A stretch of 64,000 nt of DNA from Marinicella sp. Lineage in GTDB: Bacteria > Pseudomonadota > Gammaproteobacteria > Xanthomonadales > Marinicellaceae. Numbering within the stretch: position 1 is the stretch's first letter; every line of letters starts with the position of its first letter. The notes under the pieces are model-generated. The model saw only the letters and a program-made list of their open reading frames with translations. It ran no database searches and was not told the origin of the DNA. The DNA lies in assembly GCA_965230295.1 (NCBI GenBank), contig OZ246001.1, positions 1,120,001-1,184,000 of the forward strand, in the 5' to 3' direction. The position numbers and the translations under genes were made by a program. Positions 3,089 through 42,554 of the stretch are shown here, piece by piece.

Positions 3089-4372
3089 TCAGAAGGAAGG
3101 ACAGGTAGGTGGAATAACTGGACCTTCAAATCCAGTGGCGAAGATTAAATCTCCTTCAAAACCGGATTTGAAAATAATGGGACCTGCCGGGCCCCCTCCA
3201 CGATTCTGGGAACGCGGTATTGCGAAAGGCAAACTACTGCCATCACCAAATGGATAAGGATCAATGCTGTCAGGCAAAGTTGTGATGGTTCCATCACTGA
3301 CATTAATCCAGCGACCCGTGTTTTCACTGGCAAAAATGGCCACCAGTTTATTTTGTTCACTGAACATCAAACTGGTCAGAACACCGGTTGAACTGCCTGG
3401 ATCAGGGTAGTTGGTACAACTGGCTTGCATGGTATTTGAGTCCACTTCGATCAGCACATCAGTGGTATCAAATGACATGGTATCCAAAGCATAGTAATTA
3501 CCATTGACCGGACTGACGGCGAAATCATTGATGCCATAATCCAACATGCCCGTACTGCCCAAGCAATCTGTGACTGCCTGATCCGCGTTACCATTGGCAA
3601 TAAAATCCGCTACAACACATTGTGAAAAGGTGTTGGTGCGGTCTCTGAATTGATTCATCACAGCAGCACAAGTGGCATCTGTGGTGGTATCAGCTTCTGA
3701 CCATGCAGCAGGAATCACACCGCCGTTGGCTGCAGTCAAATCAGCACTGGTTACTTGCCCAATCATGATCCGGGGCACCTGGTATAACACCTCTCCAGTG
3801 CCCGCCATCACATCAGCACTGGATTGATAGTTGGTTTTATAACCCAATAAATACATGTTGCCTGATTGATCAAACGAAGAGGCCGTGTGTACGATTGGAA
3901 TGACTTGCTCATTGTCTGGAGGTAAAACAAGGTCTTCCGCTGGTGGTTGTATTGAACCAATGTTTTGGTAGCCACCATCATTGCCTATTCTAAACACATT
4001 GACATCATCAGCCACCATCATATCCCCAGGTTGACCTGGTGAAGGAAATGGCATGGTTAATTCCAGATGGGTGCCTATACCCATTGAATCAGTAGGCATC
4101 AAGCCATATAAGAACCGGTCACTTGGATTCAAGCCCAAACCATCAATGGGATTGGGTAAAGTGCCACAATTATTCAGTGTATTGACAAAAGTCTGATCTG
4201 ACATGTTGGTACACTGCCTGTACAATCGGCTGTTGCCAAATAAATCAGAACTGATGCTGAAAGCTTGATTGTCTGTATCCTGAAAGGAAGTGGTGATATC
4301 CGGAACACACAATGGACCACCCGCTTGCGCACCAGAGGCAACAAACAGACCCACACACAGTAATTTCTTCAT
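3089..4372 (-). CDS. Secreted beta-propeller-like protein (DUF6923-like) with two tandem IFxxGFE tags near the C-terminus
   Basis: Signal peptide (AQA); GLGLNPSDRFLYG, SFDQSGNMY and DFAVSPVNGNYYA blade-like motifs; tail IIFKSGFEGDLIFATGFE; RBS AGGGG. Confidence 0.75.
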   Translation of the reverse strand: MKKLLCVGLFVASGAQAGGPLCVPDITTSFQDTDNQAFSISSDLFGNSRLYRQCTNMSDQTFVNTLNNCGTLPNPIDGLGLNPSDRFLYGLMPTDSMGIGTHLELTMPFPSPGQPGDMMVADDVNVFRIGNDGGYQNIGSIQPPAEDLVLPPDNEQVIPIVHTASSFDQSGNMYLLGYKTNYQSSADVMAGTGEVLYQVPRIMIGQVTSADLTAANGGVIPAAWSEADTTTDATCAAVMNQFRDRTNTFSQCVVADFIANGNADQAVTDCLGSTGMLDYGINDFAVSPVNGNYYALDTMSFDTTDVLIEVDSNTMQASCTNYPDPGSSTGVLTSLMFSEQNKLVAIFASENTGRWINVSDGTITTLPDSIDPYPFGDGSSLPFAIPRSQNRGGGPAGPIIFKSGFEGDLIFATGFEGPVIPPTCPSF

Positions 4373-4563
4373 AGTACCCCTACTCGTTATTATTTGAATG
4401 AACCTGATTTATTATCGACGAAACGAAGCCAAAATGTTGAATTTATTACTTATTGTTCTAAAAAAATTAAAATATTTGCTGTCTTTCGCTGATAATGACA
4501 GATAATTTGGAGATGTGACAATCTTTGTTGATGTCACAGATTGTAAAATCACCTAACAACAAA

Positions 4564-4592
4564 TTGACGGCATGAAAATTGATTGCTATCCT
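4564..4592 (+). promoter_or_regulatory. Probable sigma70 promoter for the BON-LysM gene
   Basis: TTGACG-17bp-TATCCT with TGn extension, 34 bp before the ATG. Confidence 0.5.
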
Positions 4593-4626
4593 GTATACAA
4601 TTAAATACTAACAACGAGGCAATATT

Positions 4627-5133
4627 ATGGGATTTTTTGACTTTTTGGCAGATGCTGGATCTAAAGTATTTGGCAGTGATGAAGAAGAAAAGGATGTGAC
4701 ACTACCTATCATCAAGCACATTGAAAATGCGGGTGTAGACATCACCAACATGAAAACCAAATTTGCAACTGGCGTGGTGACCCTTTCTGGATATGTCCCC
4801 AATCAGGAACAAAAAGAAAAATCAGTATTGACTGCTGGAAACATTGCTGGTGTTGCCAGGGTTCAAGACAATTTAATCTTGGGCGCCCCTCCTGCAGATG
4901 TGGCTGAAGCTGAAAAAGCCGAAGCTGAAGTGGCAGCCGCCGAGGAAGGAAAAGCCGGTGAAGAAGCTTGGGAATCAAGAACTTATACGGTTCAATCTGG
5001 TGACACTTTAGGCAAAATTGCCAAAGAATTTTATGGCAATGCCATGGAATACCCCAAGATTTTTGAAGCCAACAAACCAATGCTGTCTGACCCCGACAAA
5101 ATTTACCCCGGTCAAGTATTAAGGATTCCTTAA
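4627..5133 (+). CDS. kbp: BON + LysM peptidoglycan/K+-binding protein (Kbp/YgaU family)
   Basis: MGFFDFLADAGSKVFG start; BON domain; LysM YTVQSGDTLGKIA..IFEANKPMLSDPDKIYPGQVLRIP. Confidence 0.9.
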   Translation: MGFFDFLADAGSKVFGSDEEEKDVTLPIIKHIENAGVDITNMKTKFATGVVTLSGYVPNQEQKEKSVLTAGNIAGVARVQDNLILGAPPADVAEAEKAEAEVAAAEEGKAGEEAWESRTYTVQSGDTLGKIAKEFYGNAMEYPKIFEANKPMLSDPDKIYPGQVLRIP

Positions 5134-5157
5134 AAAACTGTTTTATCAGGGTGTGGA

Positions 5158-5198
5158 ATGGCCGCTTGGTGCTGCATGCATCAAGTGGCTATTTTTTT
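5158..5198 (+). terminator. Intrinsic terminator after kbp
   Basis: Stem ATGGCCGCTTGGTGC/GCATCAAGTGGCTAT followed by a T-run. Confidence 0.7.
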
Positions 5199-5219
5199 GT
5201 CATGGGAAATATGAAAAAC

Positions 5220-5957
5220 TCAGAATTTGATCAGTTGTTTAATCACCACATCCGCAGCACGAATACCAAAGCTGCTGATCACCATGGGGCTGGTGCCGTA
5301 ACCCGAATCACAATCGAGCTTGAATGATTGTTGGTCAGCTGTATCACAAAATGGCAGGATCATTGCCTGGTCTGAATAAACGGCCTTGATTTTAAATTTC
5401 TTTTTGTCTTTCAGTCCATGGTGCTTGCGCAGTTCATAACGCACTTTTTTCAGCAAGCGATCACCCGCAGTTTGGGCCAAGTCAGCTTGTTGAATGCAGG
5501 CAGGATCAGTTTTGCCGCCCGCACCACCGCAAGTGACAACAGGTATTTTTTTCTTCAGACACTCAGCCAACAACAATACTTTGTGCTTTACTGAGTCAAT
5601 CGCATCAATCAAGTAATCAAACTCAAGTAACAATTCATCGGCATTGCTGGCCATAAAAAATGCTTCTTGTGCATGGACCTGACAAGCTGGATTGATGTCA
5701 TGTATCCGTTTGGCCATGGTGACAACTTTAGATTGGCCCACCGTACTGTCTAAAGCATGAATCTGGCGATTGATGTTGGTCACACACAATTCATCGGCAT
5801 CAATCAAAGTGATGGTGCCCACACCGACACGTGCCAACATTTCGGCCGCCCAACAACCCACACCACCGACACCCACAATGGCCACATGAGCTGATGCCAA
5901 CCGTTGTGCCTGGGCTGTACCAAATAACCGTTCTATACCACCAAATCGTTCTTTCAT
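5220..5957 (-). CDS. tcdA: tRNA threonylcarbamoyladenosine dehydratase (ThiF family)
   Basis: RFGGIERLFG, VGVGGVGCWAAE, TNINRQIHAL, GGAGGKTDP, LDCDSGYG. Confidence 0.9.
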   Translation of the reverse strand: MKERFGGIERLFGTAQAQRLASAHVAIVGVGGVGCWAAEMLARVGVGTITLIDADELCVTNINRQIHALDSTVGQSKVVTMAKRIHDINPACQVHAQEAFFMASNADELLLEFDYLIDAIDSVKHKVLLLAECLKKKIPVVTCGGAGGKTDPACIQQADLAQTAGDRLLKKVRYELRKHHGLKDKKKFKIKAVYSDQAMILPFCDTADQQSFKLDCDSGYGTSPMVISSFGIRAADVVIKQLIKF

Positions 5958-6718
5958 AAGTTGAATAATTTCTGGGTATTGGCCGCTGTTTGTTGCGCCA
6001 AAAACATGGGGCCAATGTCTTTGATGGCGGCCACTTCTTGATTTACACGCAGTAAATCAATGGGTAAATTGCGTTTACCATAACGGTCATGAAAGGGTTG
6101 ATCAGGTCCATCGGTTTCCAGCAAGATGCTGGTCACTGGAACAGCTTGGACCATAGACTGCAGTTTTTTGGCTTTGGGGTTACAGACGGCAGGCCCAAAA
6201 CCCAAACAGACACCTGCATCAGTGATTTGTTTGGCTTGTTCAACCGAACCATTGAAACTGTGCATCACTGCTTTGAAGTAATCATGTTTTTTCAACAACT
6301 GAAACACGTCATCAATGGCCCCCCTGACATGTAAAATTAAAGGCAGATTAAAATGCTTGGCCAAGACAAGTTGTGCTTCGAAGATTAGCTTCTGCTTATC
6401 TCTATCTAAATCCTTGAGATAATAATCAAGCCCACATTCACCCACAGCCACAGCACCAGAACCCTGCAATGAATTTGCCAGAAATTCCAAGTCAGTGGCA
6501 TTGTGCTCTTTGATGTAATATGGGTGTAAACCTAATGCATACAACACGGCATCATGTTCTTTGGCTAAATTTAAAACTGCAGGAAATTGATTAACAGTGA
6601 CAGCAGGGACAACAAATCGACTGACACCTGCCAATTGCGCCATTTTGATTAATTGATTTCGATCATAATCAAAACGCGCATCGTCCAAATGTATGTGTGA
6701 ATCTATCAGCTGAATCAA
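5954..6718 (-). CDS. TatD family hydrolase (YjjV-like)
   Basis: IDSHIHLD, GLHP, VGECGLDY, MHSF, LETDGP. Confidence 0.92.
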   Translation of the reverse strand: MIQLIDSHIHLDDARFDYDRNQLIKMAQLAGVSRFVVPAVTVNQFPAVLNLAKEHDAVLYALGLHPYYIKEHNATDLEFLANSLQGSGAVAVGECGLDYYLKDLDRDKQKLIFEAQLVLAKHFNLPLILHVRGAIDDVFQLLKKHDYFKAVMHSFNGSVEQAKQITDAGVCLGFGPAVCNPKAKKLQSMVQAVPVTSILLETDGPDQPFHDRYGKRNLPIDLLRVNQEVAAIKDIGPMFLAQQTAANTQKLFNL

Positions 6719-8603: not shown

Positions 8604-8604
8604 A

Positions 8605-9883: not shown

Positions 9884-9886
9884 TGC

Positions 9887-11780: not shown

Positions 11781-11787
11781 CGTTCAA

Positions 11788-15004: not shown

Positions 15005-16096
15005 ATGAAAAATGACTACTTACTAACGATTTTATTATTATTGATTTCGCTACCGATTTTCGCGGCAGAATTTTGTGTCACAAGCAGTGCTGGATTACAA
15101 GCGGCCTTGAATTCGGCTGCAAACAACAACCAACACGATTTGATTAAAATTGCAGAAGGCTCTTACACCACCCCAGGTAGTGAGTTCAGCTACACTGAAA
15201 GTGTCGGCTGGGATCTAGAAATTTCAGGTGGCTGGACTGAGTTTTTTGGCAATCCATGTGGTCAACAACTTTCTGGCAACCCATTCAATACAGTTTTGGA
15301 CGGTGACAGCAGCAACCGGATCATGAACATCCGTTCAGGCGGCTCTTCAGACATCACCATCAGCAGTTTGGCCTTCATTAACGGTGGGACTTCAAACCTA
15401 TCAAATGGCGGAGGTTTGCGATTCTGGCCAACCAACACGAACAATCACACCGGGAAAGTGGTTATTGAAAGATCTGCATTCATCAACAATACGGCTGAAG
15501 AAGCCAGTGCAATTTCCTTTCTCAGTGCAGGGTTACGGAATCACATACGCAACAATATATTCGTTGTAAACAGCACAACCAACGGTTCAAATACTGTCGT
15601 CATCAACCAGGACTTGTCAGCAGGCATTTACTTCACCAACAACACCATGGTTACCAATTCCGGAGATGCGGCCAACAACCGCGGTGGTTTAAGAATTTTC
15701 ACCACCTCGACATCAAATGCTTACGTGGGAAATAACGTGCTGTATGACAACGGCAGTGAGGATTTTAGAGTCACCGGCTCAGGACAGGTATACTTGCATT
15801 ATAACAATGTTGACCTGGTTTTCGGCGCAAGCTCAAGCAGCCTCATAGGTAATTTTTCTGCAGATCCCGAGTTCAATCCAGGCATATTAAACTACACACC
15901 TTCATATGGATCACCCTTGGTTAACCAAGGGTATGACCCTCCCAATATTGTTCCATTTCCAACACCTTTTAATCTGGCATGGTTTGAAGGCACAGTAGAT
16001 ATCTTTGGCAACCCCAGAAAACAAGATGGGAAAGTCGACATTGGAGCGGTTGAGACTGAGCCAGAACCGCCTATATTCGCAAATGGGTTTGAATAA
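15005..16096 (+). CDS. Secreted right-handed beta-helix-like protein with choice-of-anchor Q-like region and terminal IFANGFE tag
   Basis: RBS GAGG; signal peptide; Asn/Gly-rich repeats (GGGL, FINN, FTNNT..N); SPLVNQG..DIFGNPR..VDIGAVE; ends PPIFANGFE. Confidence 0.8.
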   Translation: MKNDYLLTILLLLISLPIFAAEFCVTSSAGLQAALNSAANNNQHDLIKIAEGSYTTPGSEFSYTESVGWDLEISGGWTEFFGNPCGQQLSGNPFNTVLDGDSSNRIMNIRSGGSSDITISSLAFINGGTSNLSNGGGLRFWPTNTNNHTGKVVIERSAFINNTAEEASAISFLSAGLRNHIRNNIFVVNSTTNGSNTVVINQDLSAGIYFTNNTMVTNSGDAANNRGGLRIFTTSTSNAYVGNNVLYDNGSEDFRVTGSGQVYLHYNNVDLVFGASSSSLIGNFSADPEFNPGILNYTPSYGSPLVNQGYDPPNIVPFPTPFNLAWFEGTVDIFGNPRKQDGKVDIGAVETEPEPPIFANGFE

Positions 16097-16102: not shown

Positions 16103-18685
16103 TTAATCTAGCAGGTGCTCTTGGCCATCAATGGCTTCGAGCATCTGTTGCAGCTTGGTTTCAGCTCTTGCGACTTCTGCATGATCCTGGCCCAAAAAAT
16201 CAATTTGCGCTTGAATCAATGCTTTTTGCGCCAAAACCGCAGATTGATCTTGACCAGCCTGAATCAGGCCATCAACCTGATGACCTTTAACCAAAATGAA
16301 ATACGGGTTGTTGCGTCCAAATTGGGCGACCAACCCAGCCAATGCGTTTTCCCAGACTGGCAACCCCAATGTCACTTGATTCAAACCCATGTGGCTGACT
16401 GCAATGTTGTCTTGCAACAACAAGGTGATTAAATGCCGCTCACCCAAACCCTCCAGTGCAACGGGAAGGCTTTCATCGCTGATTAAAAGGGATTCTTCGT
16501 ATCGACTGGTGTTGTTCAACAATTCACCCAGGTTATAGGCCAGTTTCAAGGTTTCAATGTGGTCATTGCCCATCTTTTCGTTTGCATTCTGGTAAGCTGT
16601 TCTCATCAGATCCTCACCTTCAATCATTCGCCCCAATGAAACGTAAGTATTGGCTAAATTGATATGGGTTTTTATCGCATCTTCACTTTCAGCACCCTCT
16701 AACTGAGTAACCAATTCAGCAGCACGCTCTTGATAAACCAAAGCCTCATCAAGCTTTCCTTGACGTTGTAAGTTCCCGCCTAAGTTAATCAACATAATCA
16801 AATAACCATGATTATCCTTGCCAAAATATTGCTCTGCCAGCTGCATAGACTGTACCAGGATTTCCTCAGCATCTGACCACCGTCCCAAGTGATTCAGCAC
16901 CAATGCCAAATTGTTATTCGCAGCCAGAACATTGGTGGGTTTGGGACTGTCTGTAGAACCCAGTGTGGCCAGAGCTGCACGCGCAACTTGTTCGGCTTCA
17001 TGAAACTTGGTTTGTTCGATATGGGTAACTGTCAATGCCATCAAGGCCAAGAATTTTGTGTTTTGATATTTCGTCTGCCGGGGTATTTGATCCAATAATT
17101 GATTCAACATCACTTCTGCTTTGTTGTATGCCCCTGATCGCCTTTCAGCATCAGCTGCATCCACTTTCGCATGCAAATTCAAATCCATGAATTGTGGCTC
17201 GGGGTCTGTGACATCAATGATTTGTTGTAATAATTTTTGACCGGCTTCATTGCGGCCTAATATCTTTTCGGTCCTTGCCACTTGTAATTTCATTCGCAAC
17301 ACATCTCTTAAATTGGCATCAGGATCATTTTCAAGAAGTGACAATCCTTTTTTGAATTGTTGGTTACTTTGGACCATTAATTTCAGGTTTTGGTATGACT
17401 TGCCGATGGCCTCACTGATGGCTGCCAGCGCCAGAGGCTGAGCAGCAAAACGGTCTGTAGAATTCTTGGCTGCCAAATCCAGCATATCAGCAACCCTGAC
17501 CTCTCGACCTTTGCCAACATCAAAGGTTGAACCCAAAATCTCTTGCAAGAATTCATTGACTGCTTCTGCTTTTTGCTGTTCCTGAACAGCTTTCTGCCGT
17601 TCAACATTGGCAAAATACAAACCCGAACTGGCCAACACCAGGCCGAACAACAATGAGCCTATGATGCCCATCACCATGCGCCGTTTTTTTCGCTGCACCG
17701 GCTCTTCCCTAACCAACTCAAGCGCCTTAATGATCACACTGGCTGTTGGCCTGGATTGTGGATGCGGGTTGATCATGGCCTGAATCAACCTCAGCATTGA
17801 TGTTGGCATATCTGGCCTGAAGCTTCGCAGTGATAAATAAGCTGAATTCTGGTGTGCCTGGGCAATGTCGAGTATATTTTCACCTTTGACCGGATATTGA
17901 CCACTGGCCATTTTAAACAGCAAACAACCCATGGCATAAATGTCACTGGCTGGACTTTTGGGCGAATCAGCAAACAATTCTGGTGCCATCAGCATGGGGG
18001 AACCTACTGAGTGATTACTGGGGTGATTGGAACCACTTTCCAAACCTGCACCAAAATCCATCAACACATATTGATCATTCTGATCCAACATCACATTGGC
18101 TGCTTTGACATCACCATGAACCAAACCTGCCTCGTGAACAGCCTTTAAAGCTTGGCTCAATGCGACACCTGCACTCAATAATTCTTCTAATTCGACACGG
18201 GTGTGACCCTCTAAAGTTTTTCCTAAAATCAAATCAGACCAGAAACCCACCTGCCCATCATGTACGCCAGCACCATGAATCGCCAGCACATGCCGGTTTC
18301 GAACTTGGGCGATGCGTTGGGCTTCTTCAATAAACAGTTTACTGTGAAAGCCAGCCAGTTGATCAGGTTTTAACAGTTTCAGTGCCACATCCCTGTTTAA
18401 CACCGGATCAAATGCCCGGTAGACATCTCCATACCCACCTTCGCCCAATTGTTCAATGACCTGGAGGTGACCCCATTCAAACAGGGCCACCACAGCATTT
18501 TGTGATGGCTGCTGATAAACCTGATGATGAGACGCAAACACTTGCTGGATGTCATGGATGCGCTTCAGCTGCTGCAAGATTTCATTTTCAGACTCGTTAT
18601 GAATGTCTTGTGTGTCCCAATCGACCGGCTCATCTGAAGCCATTTGATTCAGCAATGCCTGCCATTTGTCACCGGGGTCATTCAC
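16103..18685 (-). CDS. Membrane Ser/Thr (Hanks) kinase with C-terminal TPR array
   Basis: LGEGGYGDV, VALKLL, HGDVKAANV, DFG, MAPE, DIYAMG; one TM; TPR repeats such as NNLALVLNHLGRWSDAE. Confidence 0.92.
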   Translation of the reverse strand: MNDPGDKWQALLNQMASDEPVDWDTQDIHNESENEILQQLKRIHDIQQVFASHHQVYQQPSQNAVVALFEWGHLQVIEQLGEGGYGDVYRAFDPVLNRDVALKLLKPDQLAGFHSKLFIEEAQRIAQVRNRHVLAIHGAGVHDGQVGFWSDLILGKTLEGHTRVELEELLSAGVALSQALKAVHEAGLVHGDVKAANVMLDQNDQYVLMDFGAGLESGSNHPSNHSVGSPMLMAPELFADSPKSPASDIYAMGCLLFKMASGQYPVKGENILDIAQAHQNSAYLSLRSFRPDMPTSMLRLIQAMINPHPQSRPTASVIIKALELVREEPVQRKKRRMVMGIIGSLLFGLVLASSGLYFANVERQKAVQEQQKAEAVNEFLQEILGSTFDVGKGREVRVADMLDLAAKNSTDRFAAQPLALAAISEAIGKSYQNLKLMVQSNQQFKKGLSLLENDPDANLRDVLRMKLQVARTEKILGRNEAGQKLLQQIIDVTDPEPQFMDLNLHAKVDAADAERRSGAYNKAEVMLNQLLDQIPRQTKYQNTKFLALMALTVTHIEQTKFHEAEQVARAALATLGSTDSPKPTNVLAANNNLALVLNHLGRWSDAEEILVQSMQLAEQYFGKDNHGYLIMLINLGGNLQRQGKLDEALVYQERAAELVTQLEGAESEDAIKTHINLANTYVSLGRMIEGEDLMRTAYQNANEKMGNDHIETLKLAYNLGELLNNTSRYEESLLISDESLPVALEGLGERHLITLLLQDNIAVSHMGLNQVTLGLPVWENALAGLVAQFGRNNPYFILVKGHQVDGLIQAGQDQSAVLAQKALIQAQIDFLGQDHAEVARAETKLQQMLEAIDGQEHLLD

Positions 18686-19248
18686 TTCATGTTCTCTGCA
18701 AGTTTATACAAGGATCGTGCCACAATCATTCTGGCTGCATTGGCTGAAGAACATTCAATAGCAGCAGCAATTTCAGGGTATGAATAGCCCAATTCAACAC
18801 GCAATATCACCGCTTCCCTTGCTTGCTCGGAAATCTTCATCAACGCATTCTCATATTTTTCAATCACTTCAGACCCGATCGCTTTTTCTAAAGCAGAAGT
18901 GGCTGTGAGGTCATCACTTTCTTGATGTTGTTGTTTGAGCAAGTCCCTTTGGTTGCTGAATCGACGGATTTCCATGCGGATGTTATTCAGCAGAATTTTT
19001 CTTAAATAGGCCAGGAAAGCCCCTTCTCTGATCGAACTGAATGAGTCCAATTTGTTCATTGCTTTGATCAATGTATTTTGTACCATGTCATCGGTCTCAG
19101 CCAAATCACGGGCATAAGCCGGTAGTCGACCATGCGCCCAACGCCTCAGCATGGGCAAATAAGTGTTGCACAATTGTTCACGGGCCAAATCATCGCCTTT
19201 TTTAACTCTGGCCAACAAGGTAGCCGTTGATTCAAGTTTTGCCCGCAT
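18682..19248 (-). CDS. ECF sigma-70 factor, kinase-associated type
   Basis: STATLLARVKKGD..A; ETDDMVQ in region 2.2; region 4 ILRVELGYSYPEIA; 4-bp overlap with the kinase gene. Confidence 0.9.
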   Translation of the reverse strand: MRAKLESTATLLARVKKGDDLAREQLCNTYLPMLRRWAHGRLPAYARDLAETDDMVQNTLIKAMNKLDSFSSIREGAFLAYLRKILLNNIRMEIRRFSNQRDLLKQQHQESDDLTATSALEKAIGSEVIEKYENALMKISEQAREAVILRVELGYSYPEIAAAIECSSANAARMIVARSLYKLAENMK

Positions 19249-24685: not shown

Positions 24686-26209
24686 ATGTATTTAGAGTAT
24701 TTTGAATTACAACAAGCACCCTTCTCGATCACCCCAGATCCGGAGTTTGTGTACTTGAGTGAAAAACACCAGGAATCATTGGCACACCTGATATATGGGG
24801 TCACCAGAGGTGGAGGAGCGGGCTTTGTACAACTCACAGGTGAAGTGGGAACCGGTAAAACCACCATCAGTCGGCTGTTCTTGCAGAAACTGCCTGAAGA
24901 CACACAAGCGGCCTTGATCCTGAATCCCAACATCACACCACTTGAACTGCTAGAAAATATCTTCAAAGAGTTTAAAATTTCAACCCGTGGTATGAAAGGC
25001 AAACTCAATACCATGGTGGAAAAGCTCAATGAACAATTGTTGCAGTGGTGGTCTGAAGGCAAAAACAATCTGGTTATCATCGATGAGGCACAGAACATCC
25101 CTCGTGATACCCTGGAACAATTGCGCCTGTTAACCAACCTAGAAACCGACCAACAAAAACTATTACAGATCATCTTGATCGGACAGCCTGAGTTAAAACA
25201 ACTGATGCAACGCAAAGACCTGCGGCAGTTGGCTCAGAGAATCACTTCAAGGTTTCACTTACAACCCTTGTCAAGAGCCGAAACCAAACACTATATCAAG
25301 CACCGCATAGCCGTCAGTTGTGGTGCGGAAGACTTGTTCTCCAACAACGCCATCAATCGCATTTACCAACAAACCAAAGGTGTGCCAAGAGTCATCAATG
25401 TGCTGTGTGATCGGGCTTTACTGGTCGCTTTCGCAGCCGAGGAAAAGTCGGTCAAATTGAAACACGTCAAACAAGCCATTGCTGAAGTGTATCCTGATCA
25501 AAATAAAGCCAACCATAAATATTGGATTGCCGCCATTGTACCTATTGTCTTAATGGGCTTACTCTGGTGGCAATGGCCTAACGATGAACCAACCAACAAC
25601 GCTTCTTCTCTACCCATCCCTGCCGAAACAACATTGAACAGTCTCCAAGCACCCACGGAACTTTTACAGTTACCCAGCACGGCTGTCAGTTGGCAACAAC
25701 TGTTGGCATTGTGGGGGGAAGACAGCAGCGCGGTTTGGAATCAAGCAACCTGTCCGGACATTTCACTGATTGGTATGGCCTGTTTACGCAAACAGGGAAA
25801 CATCAATCAAATCAAACAACACAATGTACCTGTCCTGCTGGCACTGAACAATGGCGAACTGGCTTTGCTCAAACAAATTTCCGCTGAACAATTGATCATT
25901 TCCACCACCCAAGGCGAACAAGCCATCAGTGAACAAGACATCAATCAACGCTGGTTTGGCAGTTATTTCATTTTATGGCCCATGGCTGTTGAGTTGATTA
26001 ATGATACAATCGGCGATGCCACCAATGCGTGGGCACTGAACATGGCCCAGGTGATAGATAACAACCCCAATATTCAAGCCACTGAATTAACAAATTGGGT
26101 CACTGATTTTCAGCGAAATAATGGCTTATTGGCTGACGGAATCATTGGTAAAGAAACACAAATGGCGTTATCAATACACGCTTATCATGGACCTAAATTA
26201 ATTGAGTAA
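24686..26209 (+). CDS. exeA: ExeA/GspA AAA ATPase with peptidoglycan-binding domain
   Basis: PFSITPDP, GEVGTGKT, IIDEAQ, LRLLTNLET..KLLQ; TM; C-terminal FQRNNGLLADGIIG. Confidence 0.92.
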   Translation: MYLEYFELQQAPFSITPDPEFVYLSEKHQESLAHLIYGVTRGGGAGFVQLTGEVGTGKTTISRLFLQKLPEDTQAALILNPNITPLELLENIFKEFKISTRGMKGKLNTMVEKLNEQLLQWWSEGKNNLVIIDEAQNIPRDTLEQLRLLTNLETDQQKLLQIILIGQPELKQLMQRKDLRQLAQRITSRFHLQPLSRAETKHYIKHRIAVSCGAEDLFSNNAINRIYQQTKGVPRVINVLCDRALLVAFAAEEKSVKLKHVKQAIAEVYPDQNKANHKYWIAAIVPIVLMGLLWWQWPNDEPTNNASSLPIPAETTLNSLQAPTELLQLPSTAVSWQQLLALWGEDSSAVWNQATCPDISLIGMACLRKQGNINQIKQHNVPVLLALNNGELALLKQISAEQLIISTTQGEQAISEQDINQRWFGSYFILWPMAVELINDTIGDATNAWALNMAQVIDNNPNIQATELTNWVTDFQRNNGLLADGIIGKETQMALSIHAYHGPKLIE

Positions 26210-26226
26210 CCAAAAACACTAATACT

Positions 26227-27030
26227 ATGTCTTCAATCATTGATGCACTGAAAAAATCTGACAAAAACCGCACCACAACTTCTGGCGCCAATGTCAATCA
26301 AATCAAATTCAACAATGAACCGCCTGCCAAGAGTCGCAAAGGATTCTGGTTGTTGGTGGTCTTTTTATTGTTGATTGCAGCCGCTGTGTTTGCCTGGCAA
26401 AGAGGTTGGCATCACAGTGTCATCGCCAAAGCCAAACATTGGCTGGGAGATGGATCCAACAGTGAATTGACAGACACTTCTCATGAAAATAATCAAACAG
26501 TCAATACGCAACCCAAACAACAAGCCAACCCAAAGGCTACCAACAAAAAGCCAAACAACAAGTTAACGCCACCAAAAGCCAATGAAGTTAAGGCCAAATC
26601 TGTCAGCAAAGCCGAAGATAAAAAACAAACTTTGACAGCGAATCAACCACCCACGAAAGATCAGGCTGCCACCAAAGAAACCACAGACAATCAAAAAGAC
26701 TCCATCACGCTCATTTCAGACAACCAGGCGATCCCAGATAAGAAAAAGGCTGAAATGAAAAAAATAGAAGATCGCAAATCATTGGAACCCAAGCTGAAAC
26801 AAGATTACTTGTTGATTCACCAGATTGACTTTGAGATCCGCAAGAACATCCCTCCTGTCAAGCTGAACATCCACATATTCGACCCGGATCCAAATAACCG
26901 CATGGTCATCATGAACGGCATAAAATTTGTGACTGGTGATGTGATCGAAGAAATTGTTAAGGTGAAAGAGATTGTTGAAGAAGGCGTGGTACTTGAGTTT
27001 GAAAACATCCGATTTTTAGTGCCTAAGTGA
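26227..27030 (+). CDS. exeB: ExeB/GspB type II secretion accessory protein
   Basis: MSSIIDALKKS start; TM; low-complexity linker; C-terminal HIFDPDP..R.VIMNG..GD. Confidence 0.85.
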   Translation: MSSIIDALKKSDKNRTTTSGANVNQIKFNNEPPAKSRKGFWLLVVFLLLIAAAVFAWQRGWHHSVIAKAKHWLGDGSNSELTDTSHENNQTVNTQPKQQANPKATNKKPNNKLTPPKANEVKAKSVSKAEDKKQTLTANQPPTKDQAATKETTDNQKDSITLISDNQAIPDKKKAEMKKIEDRKSLEPKLKQDYLLIHQIDFEIRKNIPPVKLNIHIFDPDPNNRMVIMNGIKFVTGDVIEEIVKVKEIVEEGVVLEFENIRFLVPK

Positions 27031-27659
27031 TCAATTTTTCAAATTTAAAGCCCAACCACTTTCCCTATGTTTCATTGGTGTTCTCATTGGTCTTTCTGTT
27101 TTTTTTGGTTTTGTCAGAATACAGCCAATTTCAGAATCAATTGATGGATCAATACGCCATCAAGACCAAAGAATATTGGAACCTCATCCAACACCAACCC
27201 ACTGAAGTCTTTCGCTTAATCACCGCCCAGTTTTTACATGGAAACATCTTGCATTGGGTGATCAACAATTCCGTATTCCTGTTATTGTCATTTGCCATTG
27301 AACGCGTTATCGGTTGGCAAAAGTTTTTATTGGTGTTTTTATTCTCGGGTATTGTAGGCAATGTATTTGCCAGTTATTTCATGCAAGATCAGGACAATTT
27401 ATTGATCGGGGCCAGTGGTGCAGTTTCTGGCTTAATCGGTTTGTGGCTGGTGATGTTTCCAGATAAAAAAATCAATTTCATCTTGCCCATAGGTTTATAC
27501 TTTCAAAAAACATCCATGCCCATCGCAGTGGTCATTATTCTGTGGCTGATCGTTCAAATCATCCTACAATTCCAACCCAACCCCTCATATGACATCGCAT
27601 GGATCAGTCACATCATGGGTTTTACAACTGGTTTTTTACTGGCTTGGTTTGTAAAATAA
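27027..27659 (+). CDS. Rhomboid family intramembrane serine protease
   Basis: RLITAQFLHGNILH, catalytic GASG and SHIMG; GTGA overlap with the exeB stop. Confidence 0.9.
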   Translation: MINFSNLKPNHFPYVSLVFSLVFLFFLVLSEYSQFQNQLMDQYAIKTKEYWNLIQHQPTEVFRLITAQFLHGNILHWVINNSVFLLLSFAIERVIGWQKFLLVFLFSGIVGNVFASYFMQDQDNLLIGASGAVSGLIGLWLVMFPDKKINFILPIGLYFQKTSMPIAVVIILWLIVQIILQFQPNPSYDIAWISHIMGFTTGFLLAWFVK

Positions 27660-36788: not shown

Positions 36789-36806
36789 TTGCAGATTCAG
36801 AATCAC

Positions 36807-36837
36807 AAAAAAAAGGCTCCTGATGGAGCCTTTTTTT
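36807..36837. terminator. Bidirectional intrinsic terminator between queF and bfd
   Basis: A8-GGCTCC-TGAT-GGAGCC-T7. Confidence 0.9.
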
Positions 36838-36858
36838 GAGCAATTCAAAATTCAATTC

Positions 36859-37083: not shown

Positions 37084-37110
37084 AATAGATTTTTCTCATT
37101 GCTTGGCTCA

Positions 37111-37140
37111 ATTATAATTGCTAATGAGAATGATTGTCAA
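37111..37140 (-). promoter_or_regulatory. Sigma70 promoter with overlapping Fur box upstream of bfd
   Basis: Minus strand TTGACA-18bp-TATAAT; GCTAATGAGAATGATTGTC (37120-37138) matches the Fur consensus at 15/19. Confidence 0.8.
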
Positions 37141-37201
37141 TACCGTTATTGTTGTTATTCTAAAAAATCCTGCCATTCCCAAAATTCATCAAGGAACTGT
37201 C

Positions 37202-39949
37202 CTACTGTGTTTTCAACTGTGAAATTTCCTCGGCCAAGGCAATCTCTGACTGGTATCGGTTTTTCAATTCCGGTACATCCAAAATGTCCAACACATCAGC
37301 AGCTTGTTGAGTAGCCACCAATGAATTTCCTGTTGCGGCATTCAACTGTGCCCAGCGCAGTTTAGCCACTGCAGTACGCTTTGAGCCCAGCCCATAGGTA
37401 TCAACCATCAACTGATGTGCTTTTGCAATGATTGACTCAGCTTCATCATATTCACCCACTTCGATCAACAAAGGTACATACATGATTTGGAATCGAGCAA
37501 ACATAGGATGGTTTACACCCATTTCATGCTTTATACCATCCAGGGCCATTTCAAAGAACCTTTTGGATGCTTCATATTTTTTCAATGCCAACAATGATCG
37601 GGCCATTCCCACATCTGTAGATGCTTCATAAAACGGAATTCTTGGCTCCAAAGCAGGCCATAAACTTTGCGCCTTTTTAAAGTTCTCGATGGCTTTTTCA
37701 TGTTCGTTCAAAGCACGGTAAGACATGCCCATGTTCAAATAAGCTGCTGGCATTTGATGCCCTTTGATTTCTGTACCATATAGGTTGTCAATGATTTGTT
37801 GGTTGATCCTGATCCCTTCTCTCATGTCTCCCAATGAAGCCACTGATACAGCCAAACGACCTAAGTTGTCGATAGTCTCAGGATGGTTCTTACCAAATTT
37901 TTCACTGAAATAAGCAACCAACTCCCGATCAATTTCAATCGCTTTCAGTGCTTCCCCACTGTTGAAGAATGCATCGGATTCTATCCCTAAAATTTGAGGG
38001 TATAACAGGGGTTCATCAGTCACTTGTAGGGCATGTGATTTCGCCACAGCTATGTCATCCAATGCTTGCTTGAAATCAGGTTCAACCAAGGCCAGTTTGC
38101 CTTTCAAAGCATAGAGTGACGCCAGCAACGAATGGGCAGAAAACAACTTGGCTATGTCAGGTTCATATGAGCTTAAAGTGAGCATGATTTGTGCAGCCTC
38201 TGCTGTTTGATTCAAACGAATTAAGCTGTTCATAAGAGACATGGCTGCCCTCGCTGATTGTTCGTTAACATCATCTGTCAATGGTGCCAATTCCATCGCC
38301 TGCCTGAAATGATGAACAGCCCCTTCCAAATTATCCTGTGCTTCCATGTTATTACCCGCATGGATGTGAGCAGCTGCTAATCTATGTGTCTCTTTGGGTT
38401 GTTGATTCAATAATTTTATTTGTTCATTGGTGAGTTGTTCGGCAGACTTCACTTGACCTAAACGATACTGGATTTGGCTTAACAGCCCCAATGTTTCGGT
38501 TTTTAATAACACATCACCCTTTTCTGCCAAAATCTTCTCAGCTGCCAACCCAGTTAATTCATTGACACTGATGGGTTGTTGCTGATTCTTAACCGGATCT
38601 GCCGCTGTGAAAATACTGAGTAAAAATTGATTCGACCAATTGGCTTTTTCGGCCTCTTGCTCAGCAATGGCCGCTTGGTTAAAAGCAAACACCGCAGAGG
38701 CAACTATGCCAAACACAGCTGCAGATGAAATGGTGATTGGTATTTTATTTTTTTGCCATGTTTTACTGAATCTGTACCAAAAATGATTGGCGTGATTGGG
38801 AACCGCCGAACCTGCTAAGAACAGCTGTAAATCATTATTCAATTCAGTGGTATTTTTATACCGGGCACTGACATCCACTTGTAAACCTTTATCGATGATG
38901 GTGCCCAACTCTTTTGACAAAGCCCTGTCTATAACTTTCGGATCCAGGCCATTCATCAGAGCTATGCCATGACCACTTTTGCATTGTGCTTTGAAACGCT
39001 GATAGACTTTTTCAATTGGATTGTTCAGTTGTTGGTGATAATCAACCAAAGTGGTTATTGATTCACTTTTCCTGGGCACAGATCCTGTACACAGCTCATA
39101 CAAAACAGCACACAATCCAAATACATCACTGGCTGTGCTGAGCAAATCACCTTTGGTTTGCTCCGGAGATGAATAGCCAGGAGTGAACTGCGGTAAATAA
39201 ATGTCAGCAGAACTGACATGTAAGGGGCGGGCTACACCAAAATCCACCAATTTAATCTGTCCCGCTTCATTGACCAAGATATTGGCAGGTTTGATGTCTC
39301 CATGAATAACCAAATTCTGGTGGGCATACCCAACTGCATTGATGGTTTGTTGCACAAGTTTGATGCGTTCATGCAATGACAATTTATGTTTTTCAGCATA
39401 GGTACAAATTGGGCTTCCAGCCACCAACTCCATAACAAAGTATGAAATGTCATCATCATTGGTTCCACCATCAATCAAACGAGCAATGTTGGGGTGCTCG
39501 AATTGAGCCAAAGTTCGCATTTCTTCTGTGAACTTTTGTTTGCTGAGTTCTGAAAACTGGCCAGACTTGATGATCTTTAACGCCACTTCCTTTTCATATT
39601 CACCATCAGCCCTGCGCGCGATAAACACTTGCCCCATGCCGCCACTTGCCAAGGGTTTGGTCACTTTCCATGCCCCGAATTTTCGACCAACTATGTCACT
39701 CGGATTGCTGTGATTCAGCACCTGTTCTCCCAACAGTGACTCCACCAATGGATCGATCGAAGTATTCAAAATGTTGGTGCCAGATTCGTTTGCCAACATT
39801 TTTTGTAAGACCAACCGAGCTTCATCTGACAAATCTGCCTCTGCCATCTGCGTTTCTTGTGCCTCCTGCGGTAAATCACACAAAACATCAAATAGATTCA
39901 GAACCTGGGTCCACACCACTGGAGATAATTTTTTTAACAACTCATTCAT
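37202..39949 (-). CDS. Membrane Ser/Thr kinase with C-terminal TPR array
   Basis: W..V..LFD N-terminal helix; LASGGMGQV, VALKII, HPNIARLIDGG, HGDIKPANI, DFG, FTPGYSSPEQ; TM; TPRs. Confidence 0.92.
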   Translation of the reverse strand: MNELLKKLSPVVWTQVLNLFDVLCDLPQEAQETQMAEADLSDEARLVLQKMLANESGTNILNTSIDPLVESLLGEQVLNHSNPSDIVGRKFGAWKVTKPLASGGMGQVFIARRADGEYEKEVALKIIKSGQFSELSKQKFTEEMRTLAQFEHPNIARLIDGGTNDDDISYFVMELVAGSPICTYAEKHKLSLHERIKLVQQTINAVGYAHQNLVIHGDIKPANILVNEAGQIKLVDFGVARPLHVSSADIYLPQFTPGYSSPEQTKGDLLSTASDVFGLCAVLYELCTGSVPRKSESITTLVDYHQQLNNPIEKVYQRFKAQCKSGHGIALMNGLDPKVIDRALSKELGTIIDKGLQVDVSARYKNTTELNNDLQLFLAGSAVPNHANHFWYRFSKTWQKNKIPITISSAAVFGIVASAVFAFNQAAIAEQEAEKANWSNQFLLSIFTAADPVKNQQQPISVNELTGLAAEKILAEKGDVLLKTETLGLLSQIQYRLGQVKSAEQLTNEQIKLLNQQPKETHRLAAAHIHAGNNMEAQDNLEGAVHHFRQAMELAPLTDDVNEQSARAAMSLMNSLIRLNQTAEAAQIMLTLSSYEPDIAKLFSAHSLLASLYALKGKLALVEPDFKQALDDIAVAKSHALQVTDEPLLYPQILGIESDAFFNSGEALKAIEIDRELVAYFSEKFGKNHPETIDNLGRLAVSVASLGDMREGIRINQQIIDNLYGTEIKGHQMPAAYLNMGMSYRALNEHEKAIENFKKAQSLWPALEPRIPFYEASTDVGMARSLLALKKYEASKRFFEMALDGIKHEMGVNHPMFARFQIMYVPLLIEVGEYDEAESIIAKAHQLMVDTYGLGSKRTAVAKLRWAQLNAATGNSLVATQQAADVLDILDVPELKNRYQSEIALAEEISQLKTQ

Positions 39950-40526
39950 CGATCAACGCCGCCAATATGGCTTTGGCTTTTTGCCATGTTCGATCAAGTG
40001 TCCTTTTTGAGACCCCCAAAATTTCTGCGGTCTCACTGACTGTCATCCCCACAAAATACCGCAAATGCACCACTTCGACCAAATTAGGATCCACATCTTT
40101 CAGTTGTTCCAAAGCTTCGTTCAAGGCCACCACTTGAAAACAATCCTGGGCTGTTTTTGTGGATTGTTCCTCATAAGTTACCTGTTGGTTTGCTGCCCCC
40201 CTCTTGTCAGACATTTGGCGCCTGGCCATATCAACCAATATGTGCCGCATTGACAAAGCTGCCGTTGAATAAAAGTGCCTGCGGTTACTCCATTTTTTTT
40301 CGTCCGAATTGACACTGAGTTTAAGGTAAGCTTCGTGCACCAAAGATGTGGTATCCAGGTCTTTGTTATTGACATGCTTTCTGAGTTTGGCATGGGCAAT
40401 GATTTTGAGTTCCTGATACAACAAGGCCTGCAACTTTTTATCTTGTAATGCGGCTTGTAAAGATTCATTGTTCAATACATTGGTGACAGAACCCATCATC
40501 AATCTCAGGGGTTGGTGTTCAATCAT
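39942..40526 (-). CDS. ECF sigma factor, TIGR02999/ECF43-like (EcfK/EcfP type)
   Basis: YQELKIIAH, LDTTSLVHEAYLKL, W.NRRHFY..AA.SMRHILVD.AR..KRG, LRYFVG..E.AE.LGVS.RT..R.W; start uncertain (40526 or 40499). Confidence 0.9.
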   Translation of the reverse strand: MIEHQPLRLMMGSVTNVLNNESLQAALQDKKLQALLYQELKIIAHAKLRKHVNNKDLDTTSLVHEAYLKLSVNSDEKKWSNRRHFYSTAALSMRHILVDMARRQMSDKRGAANQQVTYEEQSTKTAQDCFQVVALNEALEQLKDVDPNLVEVVHLRYFVGMTVSETAEILGVSKRTLDRTWQKAKAILAALIDE

Positions 40527-40598
40527 ATTACCACAGCCCTTGAGTTGCTCACAATGCCGATTAATTTTTAATCCAACCATCATTCTGAGATCTGTTGA

Positions 40599-42554
40599 TT
40601 ACTCAAAATCATCACTAAAAATGAGGTCATCTGACTCGAAAACCGCTCTTATCGTGTGGCTTGATTGCACATTGGTTAAACATTCATCGTCCTGGTTCAC
40701 CAAGGGACAGTTCAACCAACCGATGAAATCACTGCCTGACAATGGCGTGGCAATTAAGGTCACGATGGTGCCATTGAAATACACTTCTGAGCAGTCAACT
40801 CCACATGAGATACCACCCGGAATACTGACCACTGCCCCTTCACCAGAGCCTTCTTTTTGTATGGTCAATAAAAACTCATCTTCACCAATGCTGTCATACA
40901 CTTCGTCAAAACCAGCATCATACAAACCACCAGGATCACCAGGTAAGCCTTGTGGATTGGTGTTCTCATTGACCGGTGCATCTTGATTTTCAATATCGAC
41001 TTCAGTTGTCCAACTGAATGAATCTTGCAAACACATATCCACGCCAGGAGAACTGGCCAGTTGTCTGGCATCTCCAGCAGCTGGGTTGATCAGTTGAGGC
41101 GTGCCCATGTCGTAAATCCCGGTAGGCCAAGCATGGCTGTTGTCAATCAGGTTACATTGGCCGGTGATGATGGCCGAACCGCCAGATCGGTCATCAAAAC
41201 CCGATGAATCAGTGAGCACTGAGTTTTGAATGTCTATGAACCCCGTCAGCAAGACCGATACGTAAGAACCGGTATTTGAATCTGGTATGTGGTTATCAGC
41301 CATGGTCATGTGACTGACTTCAAATTCATCGTTGTTGTTATCAGAGCGCAACATCGCATTGGCGCTGTTTCTGATCATTCCAACCCGATTCATTCTGACC
41401 CTGGATCCACCGTTACTGGTGATCATGCCAACAGCCACTGGGGTGGGAGCGATGTATTCGCTTTGTTCAATGACAGTTCTGTTTAATTGAACCATCGAAT
41501 CATTCACATTAACCACGGAACGTTCATAACGCGCACCCTGAACCTCTGAACAACGGAACAGCAAATTGCAATCGTTGGTTTGGTCCATGATTAATTGGGG
41601 CGTTGCCGTGCCGCCTCCATTGGCGTAAATGGCTGCACCCTGATCGGCTTGTGGCGCATTGATGTGGGTGTTTTGTAACAGTACAAAACCGCTACCATTG
41701 ATGTAAATGGCGCCACCATTTTCTGCCACGTTGCCATCAAAAATGACCCGGTTGGCTCGGCCATCTGCGAACACTTCGCCGCCATTATCAACATATAAAC
41801 CGGCGCCTTCTTCTGCATCCATACCTGACAAGGTGCCCCGGCCTTCTATCCTGACTCCATCTTTAATTTCTAAGTAACAACCACTTCTGATGTGCAAATT
41901 ACCTCCCTTTAATCCCTGATTGCGATGTAATCTTCCACGTAAAATCACGGTCGAATTATTCCCGGTGCAATAAATGCCTCCACCCAGGATATTGTTGGTG
42001 TTGCCATTGAACTGAATCAATGAATTGGATAAGACATCCAAGTAGCTGCCACCTGAAACCACTATGCCTGATTGGTTGCTGCTCACTAAAACATTGTCCA
42101 AGGTGACCACAGCACCACCATTCAATACCAAGGCACGGGTGGCACTGGTCAAGGACATTTGAATGTTCCTGAAAGTCACCACAGAACTGCTTTCGTTCAA
42201 AGTATTGACCTCAAAAATTTCATTGTTGGTGTCACCGATGGTTGTTCTGCCGCTGACCGCTCCAAAACAATCCGGATAACCACCGACCAAGGTCAATTCA
42301 CCAGCACCTGATGAAGACCAGTCCTGCAGCACGTAACTGCCATTGCTGTTGCCTGTATAATTGACGGTGTTGGTCAATCGAATCTCATCTTGCGAATCAC
42401 CGTTCAAGGCCGCCACAAGCAGTGCTTGGTCTAATGTGCCAAAGACATTGCCCCCGTTGCAGTTGACTGAATTGCCAACCCAATAAAGACCTGACCAAGC
42501 TGAAGTGCTGAAAATAACCGTCAATGATAAAATAAATATTTTAGTTGTTTTCAT
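40599..42554 (-). CDS. Secreted beta-helix/Pmp-like protein with choice-of-anchor Q-like region, InlB-B-like domain and terminal IFSDDFE tag
   Basis: RBS GAGGG; signal peptide; GGGI/GGAI repeats; SPGVD..DAGFDE; GSGEGAV.S.PGGI.CG.DC..VTL.A.P..GS.F.GW; ends DDLIFSDDFE. Confidence 0.8.
   Translation of the reverse strand: MKTTKIFILSLTVIFSTSAWSGLYWVGNSVNCNGGNVFGTLDQALLVAALNGDSQDEIRLTNTVNYTGNSNGSYVLQDWSSSGAGELTLVGGYPDCFGAVSGRTTIGDTNNEIFEVNTLNESSSVVTFRNIQMSLTSATRALVLNGGAVVTLDNVLVSSNQSGIVVSGGSYLDVLSNSLIQFNGNTNNILGGGIYCTGNNSTVILRGRLHRNQGLKGGNLHIRSGCYLEIKDGVRIEGRGTLSGMDAEEGAGLYVDNGGEVFADGRANRVIFDGNVAENGGAIYINGSGFVLLQNTHINAPQADQGAAIYANGGGTATPQLIMDQTNDCNLLFRCSEVQGARYERSVVNVNDSMVQLNRTVIEQSEYIAPTPVAVGMITSNGGSRVRMNRVGMIRNSANAMLRSDNNNDEFEVSHMTMADNHIPDSNTGSYVSVLLTGFIDIQNSVLTDSSGFDDRSGGSAIITGQCNLIDNSHAWPTGIYDMGTPQLINPAAGDARQLASSPGVDMCLQDSFSWTTEVDIENQDAPVNENTNPQGLPGDPGGLYDAGFDEVYDSIGEDEFLLTIQKEGSGEGAVVSIPGGISCGVDCSEVYFNGTIVTLIATPLSGSDFIGWLNCPLVNQDDECLTNVQSSHTIRAVFESDDLIFSDDFE

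Follow-up and report, generated by a model that had tools for sequence, protein, structure and literature searches.

A short terminal peptide on more than a hundred exported proteins of Marinicella, and a candidate link to NpdA-type S-layers

Introduction

Signals that sort secreted proteins to the bacterial surface have been described in several forms. The tripartite C-terminal signals (LPXTG with its sortase, PEP-CTERM with its exosortase, GlyGly-CTERM with its rhombosortase, and the IPTL-CTERM and MYXO-CTERM tails) put a short signature on dozens to hundreds of unrelated signal-peptide proteins. The C-terminal domain of type IX secretion in Bacteroidota, a folded domain of ~70-100 residues, marks many Gram-negative secreted proteins and is linked to surface attachment, while SLH, CWB2 and cohesin-dockerin modules, folded domains of 40-70+ residues belonging to Gram-positive envelopes, dock many enzymes to a common surface scaffold. 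The element analyzed here is a peptide of 7-9 residues, with the consensus D-[LV]-I-F-x-[DNS]-[GD]-F-[ED] and the general form hydrophobic-F-x-D-x-F-E. This peptide, henceforth the tag, was noticed near the C-termini of three secreted proteins encoded in a 64,000-nucleotide stretch of DNA from Marinicella sp. (GenBank assembly GCA_965230295.1, contig OZ246001.1, positions 1,120,001-1,184,000 of the forward strand; henceforth the window).

The described system that bears on the candidate partner of the tag is the NpdA S-layer (surface layer). According to two papers, NpdA is an S-layer protein of Delftia and Paracidovorax, ~52 kDa in its mature form, with a signal peptide and no conserved domains, encoded downstream of 12 gsp genes and with orthologues listed for Wenzhouxiangella, Rudaea, Dokdonella, Chiayiivirga, Tahibacter and a Lysobacter (PMC10765051); it is present in 1-4 copies per genome and is required for the S-layer and for nanopods (PMC3110197).

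Three tagged proteins in the window

The three open reading frames (ORFs) singled out in a preliminary description of the window are as stated there (3089-4372 on the minus strand, 14978/15005-16096 on the plus strand and 40599-42554/42668 on the minus strand). Sec-type N-termini open all three proteins (MKKLLCVGLFVASGAQA in protein 1, MKNDYLLTILLLLISLPIFAA in protein 2 and MKTTKIFILSLTVIFSTSAWS in protein 3), and in none of them is the motif followed by a transmembrane helix or a basic tail, again in agreement with that description.

Protein 1 (3089..4372, minus strand; 427 aa, with a Sec signal peptide and without a Pfam or NCBIfam family) ends ...IIFKSGFEGDLIFATGFEGPVIPPTCPSF, that is, in two copies of the tag and the 11 further residues GPVIPPTCPSF. 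The first copy, IFKSGFE, occupies residues 400-406 (3155..3175, minus strand, coordinates computed from the start of the ORF); the second, IFATGFE, occupies residues 410-416 (3125..3145, minus strand), with GDL before it and GPVIPP after it. A similar [AG]PV..P continuation follows three internal or mature-N-terminal tags in other proteins of the same genome. Protein 2 (15005..16096, plus strand; 363 aa from MKNDYLL) is a right-handed beta-helix with a choice-of-anchor Q-like end, VDIGAVE, a linker, TEPEPP, and then the tag; its tail is ...EPEPPIFANGFE-stop, equally given as ...VDIGAVETEPEPPIFANGFE-stop, and the stop codon lies immediately 3' of the tag IFANGFE (16073..16093, plus strand). Protein 3 (40599..42554, minus strand; 651 aa from MKTTKIF) has a divergent InlB B-repeat (Flg_new_2) domain right before its tail, ...ESDDLIFSDDFE-stop, in which DDL precedes the tag IFSDDFE (40602..40622, minus strand) and the stop codon again lies immediately 3'.

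The preliminary description had assigned a choice-of-anchor Q segment to two of these proteins. At most one, protein 2, has it, and that one below threshold: model NF041518 scores 20 bits (E 6e-4) against a curated cut-off of 25 bits, and it gives no match to proteins 1 and 3 at E<=0.1. A homologue of protein 2 (P0040) does carry the NCBI name choice-of-anchor Q; the nearest named relative of protein 2, at 67% identity, is in M. litoralis.

The tag across the genome

The window comes from a genome (G000; genomes are denoted by G codes) that is a single contig of 4,008,074 bp with 44% G+C, and the tag recurs throughout it. A relaxed form of the motif lies at most 12 residues from the stop codon in 118 ORFs of at least 100 aa; with four evident chance matches discarded (G000 starts 1133546, 1353073, 2648108 and 3458592), 114 tagged ORFs are left. 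The tag is the exact C-terminus of 67 of these, and 1-12 mostly polar residues follow it in the other 47. A sequence logo over the 114 tags reads D (91/114), [LVPI], I (98), F (114), x, [DNS], [GD], F (112), [ED] (106). A six-frame search for the strict motif, IF..[GD]F[ED], gives 82 occurrences in stop-to-stop segments no shorter than 60 aa, most of them at segment ends; in a non-overlapping set of 3412 genes the motif occurs 78 times, 45 times at the exact C-terminus and 72 times within 12 aa of the end. Reversed, the motif has a single occurrence in that set, away from any end, and twenty within-protein shuffles yield 0-7 motifs in total, with 0-1 near an end. These near-zero controls exclude chance at the level of the genome. 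The codons of the tag vary from gene to gene, which places the selection on the peptide and not on a DNA repeat.

The carriers are predominantly exported. Of the 114 tagged ORFs, 87 are positive in a heuristic for signal peptides, as are 834 of the 3146 ORFs (at least 100 aa long) without a tag (odds ratio 8.9, Fisher p 2.7e-27); an earlier, laxer version of it had been uninformative. Among the 27 tagged ORFs that the heuristic misses are several with visible signal peptides and one with a twin-arginine leader. This proteome scan, which the preliminary description had proposed along with the possibility that cytoplasmic proteins might bear the motif just as often, finds the tag biased to signal-peptide ORFs and less common in non-exported proteins.

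The tag is also a unit apart from the bodies that carry it. When the 114 proteins are compared without their last 25 residues, they form 64 similarity groups, of which 52 have a single member. Among 27 tagged proteins scanned with Pfam, the bodies include Beta_helix, FG-GAP, DUF285, HpiC1-like, PKD, Peptidase_M14, CotH with LTD, Arylsulfotrans, Laminin_G_3, GEVED, Calx-beta and SdiA-regulated, and nine are without a family. Homologues of protein 2, followed down to 30% identity, retain the tag in 50 of 52 cases, after a linker of 3-10 residues and at the exact end in 34. The claim of the preliminary description that a common terminal tag marks unrelated signal-peptide proteins, occupying a slot after the body, thus stands. 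Nor is the C-terminus its only place: the tag directly follows the signal peptide of DUF1800-like orthologues in two high-GC genomes of another family, it lies at residues 39-47 of a 2340-aa protein of G000 (1551084-1558106, minus strand, locus L150) with SpvB, TcdB-middle, FG-GAP and RHS-repeat matches (Tc B/C-like), and in three G000 proteins it is internal, between domains. Its occurrence at a mature N-terminus, together with the variable linker and the unrelated bodies, disposes of the idea, also raised beforehand, that it is the last strand of one shared folded domain. What these exported proteins carry is a genuine terminal linear motif under strong selection.

Tagged paralogues are densely arrayed in two regions of G000, at 3.02-3.06 Mb and 3.79-3.86 Mb, with seven DUF285 proteins in a row and ~18 FG-GAP proteins, the latter often ending GF[DE]C[IN], with a Cys directly after the tag.

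Lineage variants and a longer form

For other genomes the search used a DNA pattern that encodes the strict tag and a following stop codon, and the reversed pattern served as the control. The families of the order are numbered f1-f12, f2 being the large sister family. The strict pattern matches all 24 other genomes of the window's family, 12-66 times per genome (control 0-2), and is found in most of the order's other families; across a spread of 400 genomes from the class it does not rise above the noise level of 0-3. Among the matches listed in a scan of all species are Marinicella species, Dokdonella, Rudaea, Pseudofulvimonas gallinarii, Rhodanobacteraceae, Wenzhouxiangellaceae, Lysobacterales assemblies and two Thermoanaerobaculia assemblies.

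Families f6 and f7 are missed by the strict pattern, and their tag variants were revealed by a search for orthologues combined with the general pattern. The orthologue of protein 2 in genome G030 ends ...DGLFQDRFEP-stop, and 43 of the 50 general-pattern sites in that genome (counted by eye) have Arg at tag position 4, a residue that none of the 114 G000 tags has there. Genomes G029 and G040 have 16 sites each, mostly [LVM]FAD[SG]FE (S 7, G 6 and other 3 in the tally of the 16 G029 sites). In 150 other families of the class the general pattern is at background. The resulting lineage variants, IFxDGFE, LFxDRFE and LFADSFE, represent concerted change across dozens of unrelated proteins, as is expected from co-evolution with a single reader; they point to one common reader of the tag.

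The Thermoanaerobaculia assemblies contain the hexapeptide F-x-D-G-F-E 84 and 54 times (control 0-1). All 16 sites inspected are C-terminal and lie inside a longer motif, for example ...LFADGFESGDTSNW-stop or ...IIFADGFESGNSSAWSATVP-stop. This long form, of roughly 20 residues, can be written LFADGFESGDTSAWSATVP-stop, and one protein of G000 has it. Since the Thermoanaerobaculia sites are part of the longer motif, the short Xanthomonadales tag looks like the first half of a wider C-terminal motif. An expansion of the tag, to 84, 95 and 51 sites, is seen in three of 121 sampled Acidobacteriota genomes (G439, loci L215-L220; G566; G676), and the long form in this phylum is often on FG-GAP proteins, as in Marinicella.

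Three short and eight long tails gave no NCBIfam (release 20.0) or Pfam match at E<=10, in searches whose filters drop most matches above ~0.1. A full-text search of the literature, motif strings included, found no description of the tag, and the terms "C-terminal" and "sorting" are absent from the available portion of the paper on the genome and proteome of Wenzhouxiangella AB-CW3. The tag is, as first supposed, without an existing model, and it is undescribed within the libraries and papers searchable.

An NpdA-like protein and its gene cluster

Besides the regulator genes dealt with further below, tagged genes of G000 have a second recurrent neighbor, an unannotated secreted family of ~470 aa with 11 paralogues. 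Its members answer the description of NpdA in size (~50-60 kDa), in having a Sec signal peptide and no conserved domains, and, where the locus was retrieved, in the position of the gene directly downstream of a gsp cluster; the family is accordingly referred to as NpdA-like. The copy in the cluster (G000 855496-856917; 473 aa, signal peptide MKKNKLTMAVVAGIAGVAGMANA) belongs to no Pfam or NCBIfam family, and the PDB contains no relative of it by sequence. Its AlphaFold model, a confident one (pLDDT 86.9, pTM 0.87), is mostly beta, and a fold search with that model returns no clear solved relative, the best being 1nc7_A (Z 6.0, root-mean-square deviation 3.2 over 108 residues). The nearest clusters of the family in a protein atlas are named "cell surface protein family". 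The paralogues of G000 start at 233751, 494636, 495996, 855496, 1418106, 2432775, 2434169, 2435580, 2579249, 2682126 and 3720947; other genomes of the genus have 2-13 copies and other families mostly a single one, tandem-fused forms of ~950 aa exist in metagenomes, and a search from a Chromatiales member finds homologues in records of Betaproteobacteria, Casimicrobiaceae and Chiayiivirga.

The cluster is ordered XpsE-F-G-H-I-(J)-K-L-M-N-D, with a 140-aa lipoprotein right after the secretin, followed by the NpdA-like gene; it continues with a fast-evolving secreted protein that has a C-terminal Cys motif, a parvulin-like protein, and Wzm/Wzt, glycosyltransferase and methyltransferase genes. The same gene order is found in loci of other families of the order and in five tag-positive f2 genomes, and all tag-positive loci inspected have the block of Wzm/Wzt, glycosyltransferase and methyltransferase genes in synteny with the cluster. 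The Cys-motif protein is a second candidate reader of the tag.

In all the tag-positive clusters inspected (loci L167-L178 and L186-L190) this secreted protein, of 300-480 aa and with a Cys-x(2-7)-Cys end, lies between the NpdA-like gene and wzm. It is missing from the cluster of the tag-free genome G126, and in G056 its place is taken by a protein that ends ...IIHNGFEPSAMAPIGQVP. A gene for an exosortase H-associated membrane protein (G000 868007-868615, minus strand; L184:5011-5616; NF041730, E 4.5e-48) is located just upstream of the Xps genes.

Co-distribution of the tag and the NpdA-like family

The NpdA-like family is present in all 39 genomes of f1 and f3-f12 and absent from both f2 genomes of the same set. 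Each of the 39 has an excess of tags over the reversed-pattern control, the weakest being G031 with 2+3 matches versus 0. Within f2, 120 genomes of 58 genera were scored and 17 have the family. These 17 include all 16 genomes with 12-88 tag sites, and the 103 NpdA-like-negative genomes all have at most nine sites (controls 0-6). The exception, G553, has an NpdA-like protein and no tags, and its two copies lie outside the canonical Xps/Wzm context. Over the f1-f12 sets, all 55 genomes with tag excess have the family; in the sample of 150 other families of the class, four have the NpdA-like family and none has tag excess. Every genome of these sets with tag excess has the family, and some genomes have the family without the tag; this is what a dependence of the tag on the S-layer module, and not of the module on the tag, would predict. 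Within G000, a tagged gene directly flanks four of eight NpdA-like loci (binomial p 0.001). The co-distribution is a lead, not proof.

How the tag might act

The reading that we put forward, tentatively but as the most likely of those considered, is that the tag is a signal for docking to, or retention on, the cell surface and that it is read by a component of the NpdA-type S-layer module. In each genome more than 100 proteins that are not related to one another (enzymes, adhesin-like repeat proteins, beta-helix proteins) would present it at their C-terminus, or in rare cases at the mature N-terminus, by way of a short, flexible linker. For all of these we infer one common, trans-acting partner that reads the tag and co-evolves with it, and that would belong to a module made up of the S-layer protein gene, the small lipoprotein, the fast-evolving Cys-motif secreted protein, the parvulin-like protein and the Wzm/Wzt glycan exporter. 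Sec would carry a tagged protein across the inner membrane and type II secretion would carry it across the outer one, whereupon a component of the S-layer module would bind the free terminal peptide, plausibly as an added beta-strand. Hydrolases and adhesins would in this way stay on the cell surface or on S-layer protrusions instead of being lost to sea water. The more ambitious version of the proposal, that an anchor-free peptide of 7-9 residues (~20 in the long form) constitutes a new class of targeting signal that docks more than 100 type-II-secreted proteins on NpdA-type S-layers or nanopods, is a doubtful one, although it could prove correct.

A number of observations weigh against the docking proposal. 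NpdA-like genes occur without the tag in G553, G172, G126 and G056, from which it follows that the S-layer protein does not need the tag. The likeness of the family to the studied NpdA is one of description and gene position. In Acidobacteriota, a distant protein sharing only the NpdA-like N-terminal part is present in two of the three tag-rich genomes versus nine of the 118 others, and with the query used no such relative was found in the tag-rich G676. The adjacency seen in G000 does not carry over: among 22 loci of NpdA-like paralogues in 12 other genomes, not one is directly beside a tagged ORF, and a single locus has such an ORF at distance 2. A quick XpsD tree, finally, groups the four tag-free f2 genomes as a single clade (SH-aLRT 100) whose sister group is formed by five tag-positive f2 genomes; given this one tag-free clade, one joint loss suffices for the f2 pattern, and any gene lost there has the same profile. 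Two further attempts are neutral. A complex prediction of residues 29-473 of the NpdA-like protein with the last 46 residues of protein 2 gave interface scores (ipSAE) of 0.00 and 0.00, controls not having been run, and speaks neither for nor against; charge covariation between the tags of the Arg-variant lineage and its NpdA-like protein yielded one candidate column only, which is not evidence.

The XpsD tree has a further feature: the tag-free f2 clade (loci L211-L214, compared with L186-L190) stands on a very long stem of 1.06 changes per site. The stem is either a burst of change at the loss of tag and S-layer or the mark of a paralogous type II system. It would suit the idea that the tag is an export or routing signal, read before or during passage of the outer membrane, that serves to choose cargo for export or vesicle loading and not for retention; candidate readers are the Xps type II system, the lipoprotein beside its secretin, or some outer-membrane protein. 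The strong bias of the cargo to signal-peptide proteins suits this idea too, as does a companion cluster that opens with a full Xps set and has its conserved lipoprotein right after the secretin. However, the stem may reflect paralogy, the lipoprotein is also present, weakly matched, in the tag-free clusters of G126 and G056, and XpsD-like secretins are found in four of five tag-free f2 genomes tested, so that the tag is not accounted for by type II secretion alone. Nor are type II substrates known to rely on linear signals. A routing signal of this kind seems unlikely.

The joint loss that would explain the f2 pattern, the NpdA-like genes that occur without tags, and the tag-rich G676 with no relative of the NpdA N-terminal domain found by the query used all suit another proposal, namely that the tag is a self-sufficient anchor, or has a partner outside the S-layer cluster, and that its link to the NpdA-like family is shared ancestry only. 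It might bind, for example, cation-bridged lipopolysaccharide, the glycan exported by Wzm/Wzt, whose genes accompany every tag-positive locus inspected, or another protein. Against this, the concerted change of Gly to Arg at position 4 in one lineage favors a protein reader over a generic contact with lipid or cation, and the gene neighborhoods gave no other candidate, only kinase and sigma-factor regulators that are present in tag-free genomes as well. We consider an independent anchor or partner improbable.

Those regulators are the only recurrent neighbors across ~118 tag loci of other genomes, for which a filter on G+C at third codon positions (GC3) was applied in high-GC genomes against spurious long ORFs. 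They are Ser/Thr kinases with a transmembrane segment and a tetratricopeptide repeat (TPR) region, and extracytoplasmic function (ECF) sigma factors of family TIGR02999; kinase/ECF pairs lie beside tagged genes at 10 of the ~118 loci and recur in G000. In the window, a kinase of this architecture (16103-18685, minus strand) adjoins tagged protein 2 and is paired with an ECF sigma factor (18682-19248, minus strand), and a second Ser/Thr kinase with a TPR region (37202-39949, minus strand), paired with a TIGR02999 ECF sigma factor (39942-40583, minus strand), lies on the same strand as tagged protein 3 and immediately beside it. Tagged genes may belong to the regulons of such pairs. The TIGR02999 sigma factor was considered as a tag-specific reader and rejected, being present in all 41 relatives, tag-free ones included.

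Pairs of this sort, with the TPR regions of the kinases in the periplasm, recall the logic by which DegS senses C-terminal peptides under envelope stress. Together with the nature of the tag, a short, exposed terminal peptide with an aromatic-acidic end, they would suit a processing or quality-control signal addressed to a periplasmic protease or chaperone (a PDZ-domain protease, for instance), which would remove the tag or recognize it as the mark of unsecreted protein. Such a signal is quite unlikely: the 1-12 residues that follow 47 of the 114 tags, and the N-terminal position of some others, mean that a free carboxylate right after the tag is not required, TIGR02999 is as common in tag-free genomes, and no specific protease is tied to the tag. 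That the tag is no signal, but a capping strand of the bodies or an artefact of chance or composition, is hardly credible in view of the 64 unrelated groups and many Pfam folds, the variable linker, the N-terminal placements and the near-zero controls, even though hydrophobic residues often precede it in the logo, as they would in a preceding beta-strand.

Other genes of the window

The window also contains, at 134-2911 on the minus strand, a class GN sortase (TIGR03784, 192.9 bits) and a marine proteobacterial sortase target protein (TIGR03788, 616 bits), a known dedicated pair that is unconnected to the tag. At 24686-27656 on the plus strand lie, in a row, an ExeA/GspA-like ATPase, a GspB-like protein and a rhomboid/rhombosortase-like protein (45.9 bits against a cut-off of 84).

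Significance

About 3% of the genes of G000, and dozens in many Xanthomonadales and some Acidobacteriota, carry a terminal peptide that no annotation model recognizes. What the present analysis adds to the preliminary description is the scale of 114 proteins in one genome, the occasional N-terminal placement, the lineage variants, the long form in Acidobacteriota and a candidate NpdA-like/Xps partner system. If the tag is a targeting signal, it defines the exported and surface proteome of these proteolytic, partly predatory bacteria of sea and soil, it extends the range of bacterial sorting signals by an anchor-free type, and it offers a first candidate function for NpdA S-layers, that of a scaffold for secreted proteins. 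Should the new-class version hold, these diderms would have a decorated, cellulosome-like catalytic surface whose peptide and reader co-evolve, as in the variants at position 4. In practical terms the tag is a simple sequence marker for the prediction of secreted proteins and, if it can be transferred, a very small handle with which to display proteins at the surface. With variants that differ between lineages and a patchy occurrence within one family, the question lends itself directly to genetic tests in species that can be cultured.

Comparison with known systems

The tag resembles known C-terminal sorting signals in logic and fails their defining architecture. Like the tripartite signals, it is lineage-restricted and occupies the slot after the body, as the choice-of-anchor Q-like end of protein 2 illustrates. 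Unlike them, it has neither a transmembrane helix nor a basic tail after it, it may be the very last residues of the protein or lie at the mature N-terminus, no sortase-like enzyme is implicated, and none of the tripartite models matches the tails; a crude regular-expression search of G000 found no IPTL-, PEP- or GlyGly-CTERM tail family. From the type IX C-terminal domain it differs in phylum and in kind, being 7-9 residues (~20 in the long form) after a flexible linker, and neither the three window proteins nor the tails match that domain in NCBIfam or Pfam.

The C-terminal signature of outer-membrane proteins that is read by DegS and BAM, the C-termini of chaperone-usher subunits and the ligands of PDZ domains likewise consist of a few aromatic-rich terminal residues, and they provide a precedent for binding by strand addition. 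However, those signals have an aromatic end with a free carboxylate and mark one structural class of protein, whereas the tag has an acidic end, can be followed by extra residues and is found on soluble proteins that are unrelated. The NpdA S-layer and nanopod system of Delftia and Paracidovorax fits the candidate partner family by description, its occurrence in Wenzhouxiangella, Rudaea, Dokdonella and Chiayiivirga included; the available portions of the papers on it describe no tag or docking signal (PMC3110197, PMC10765051), and NpdA-like-positive genomes of other orders are without the tag. In proposed logic the nearest counterparts are the SLH, CWB2 and cohesin-dockerin systems, in which one small module likewise docks many enzymes to a common scaffold; what is there a folded domain on a Gram-positive envelope would here be a linear peptide in diderms, with a putative partner.

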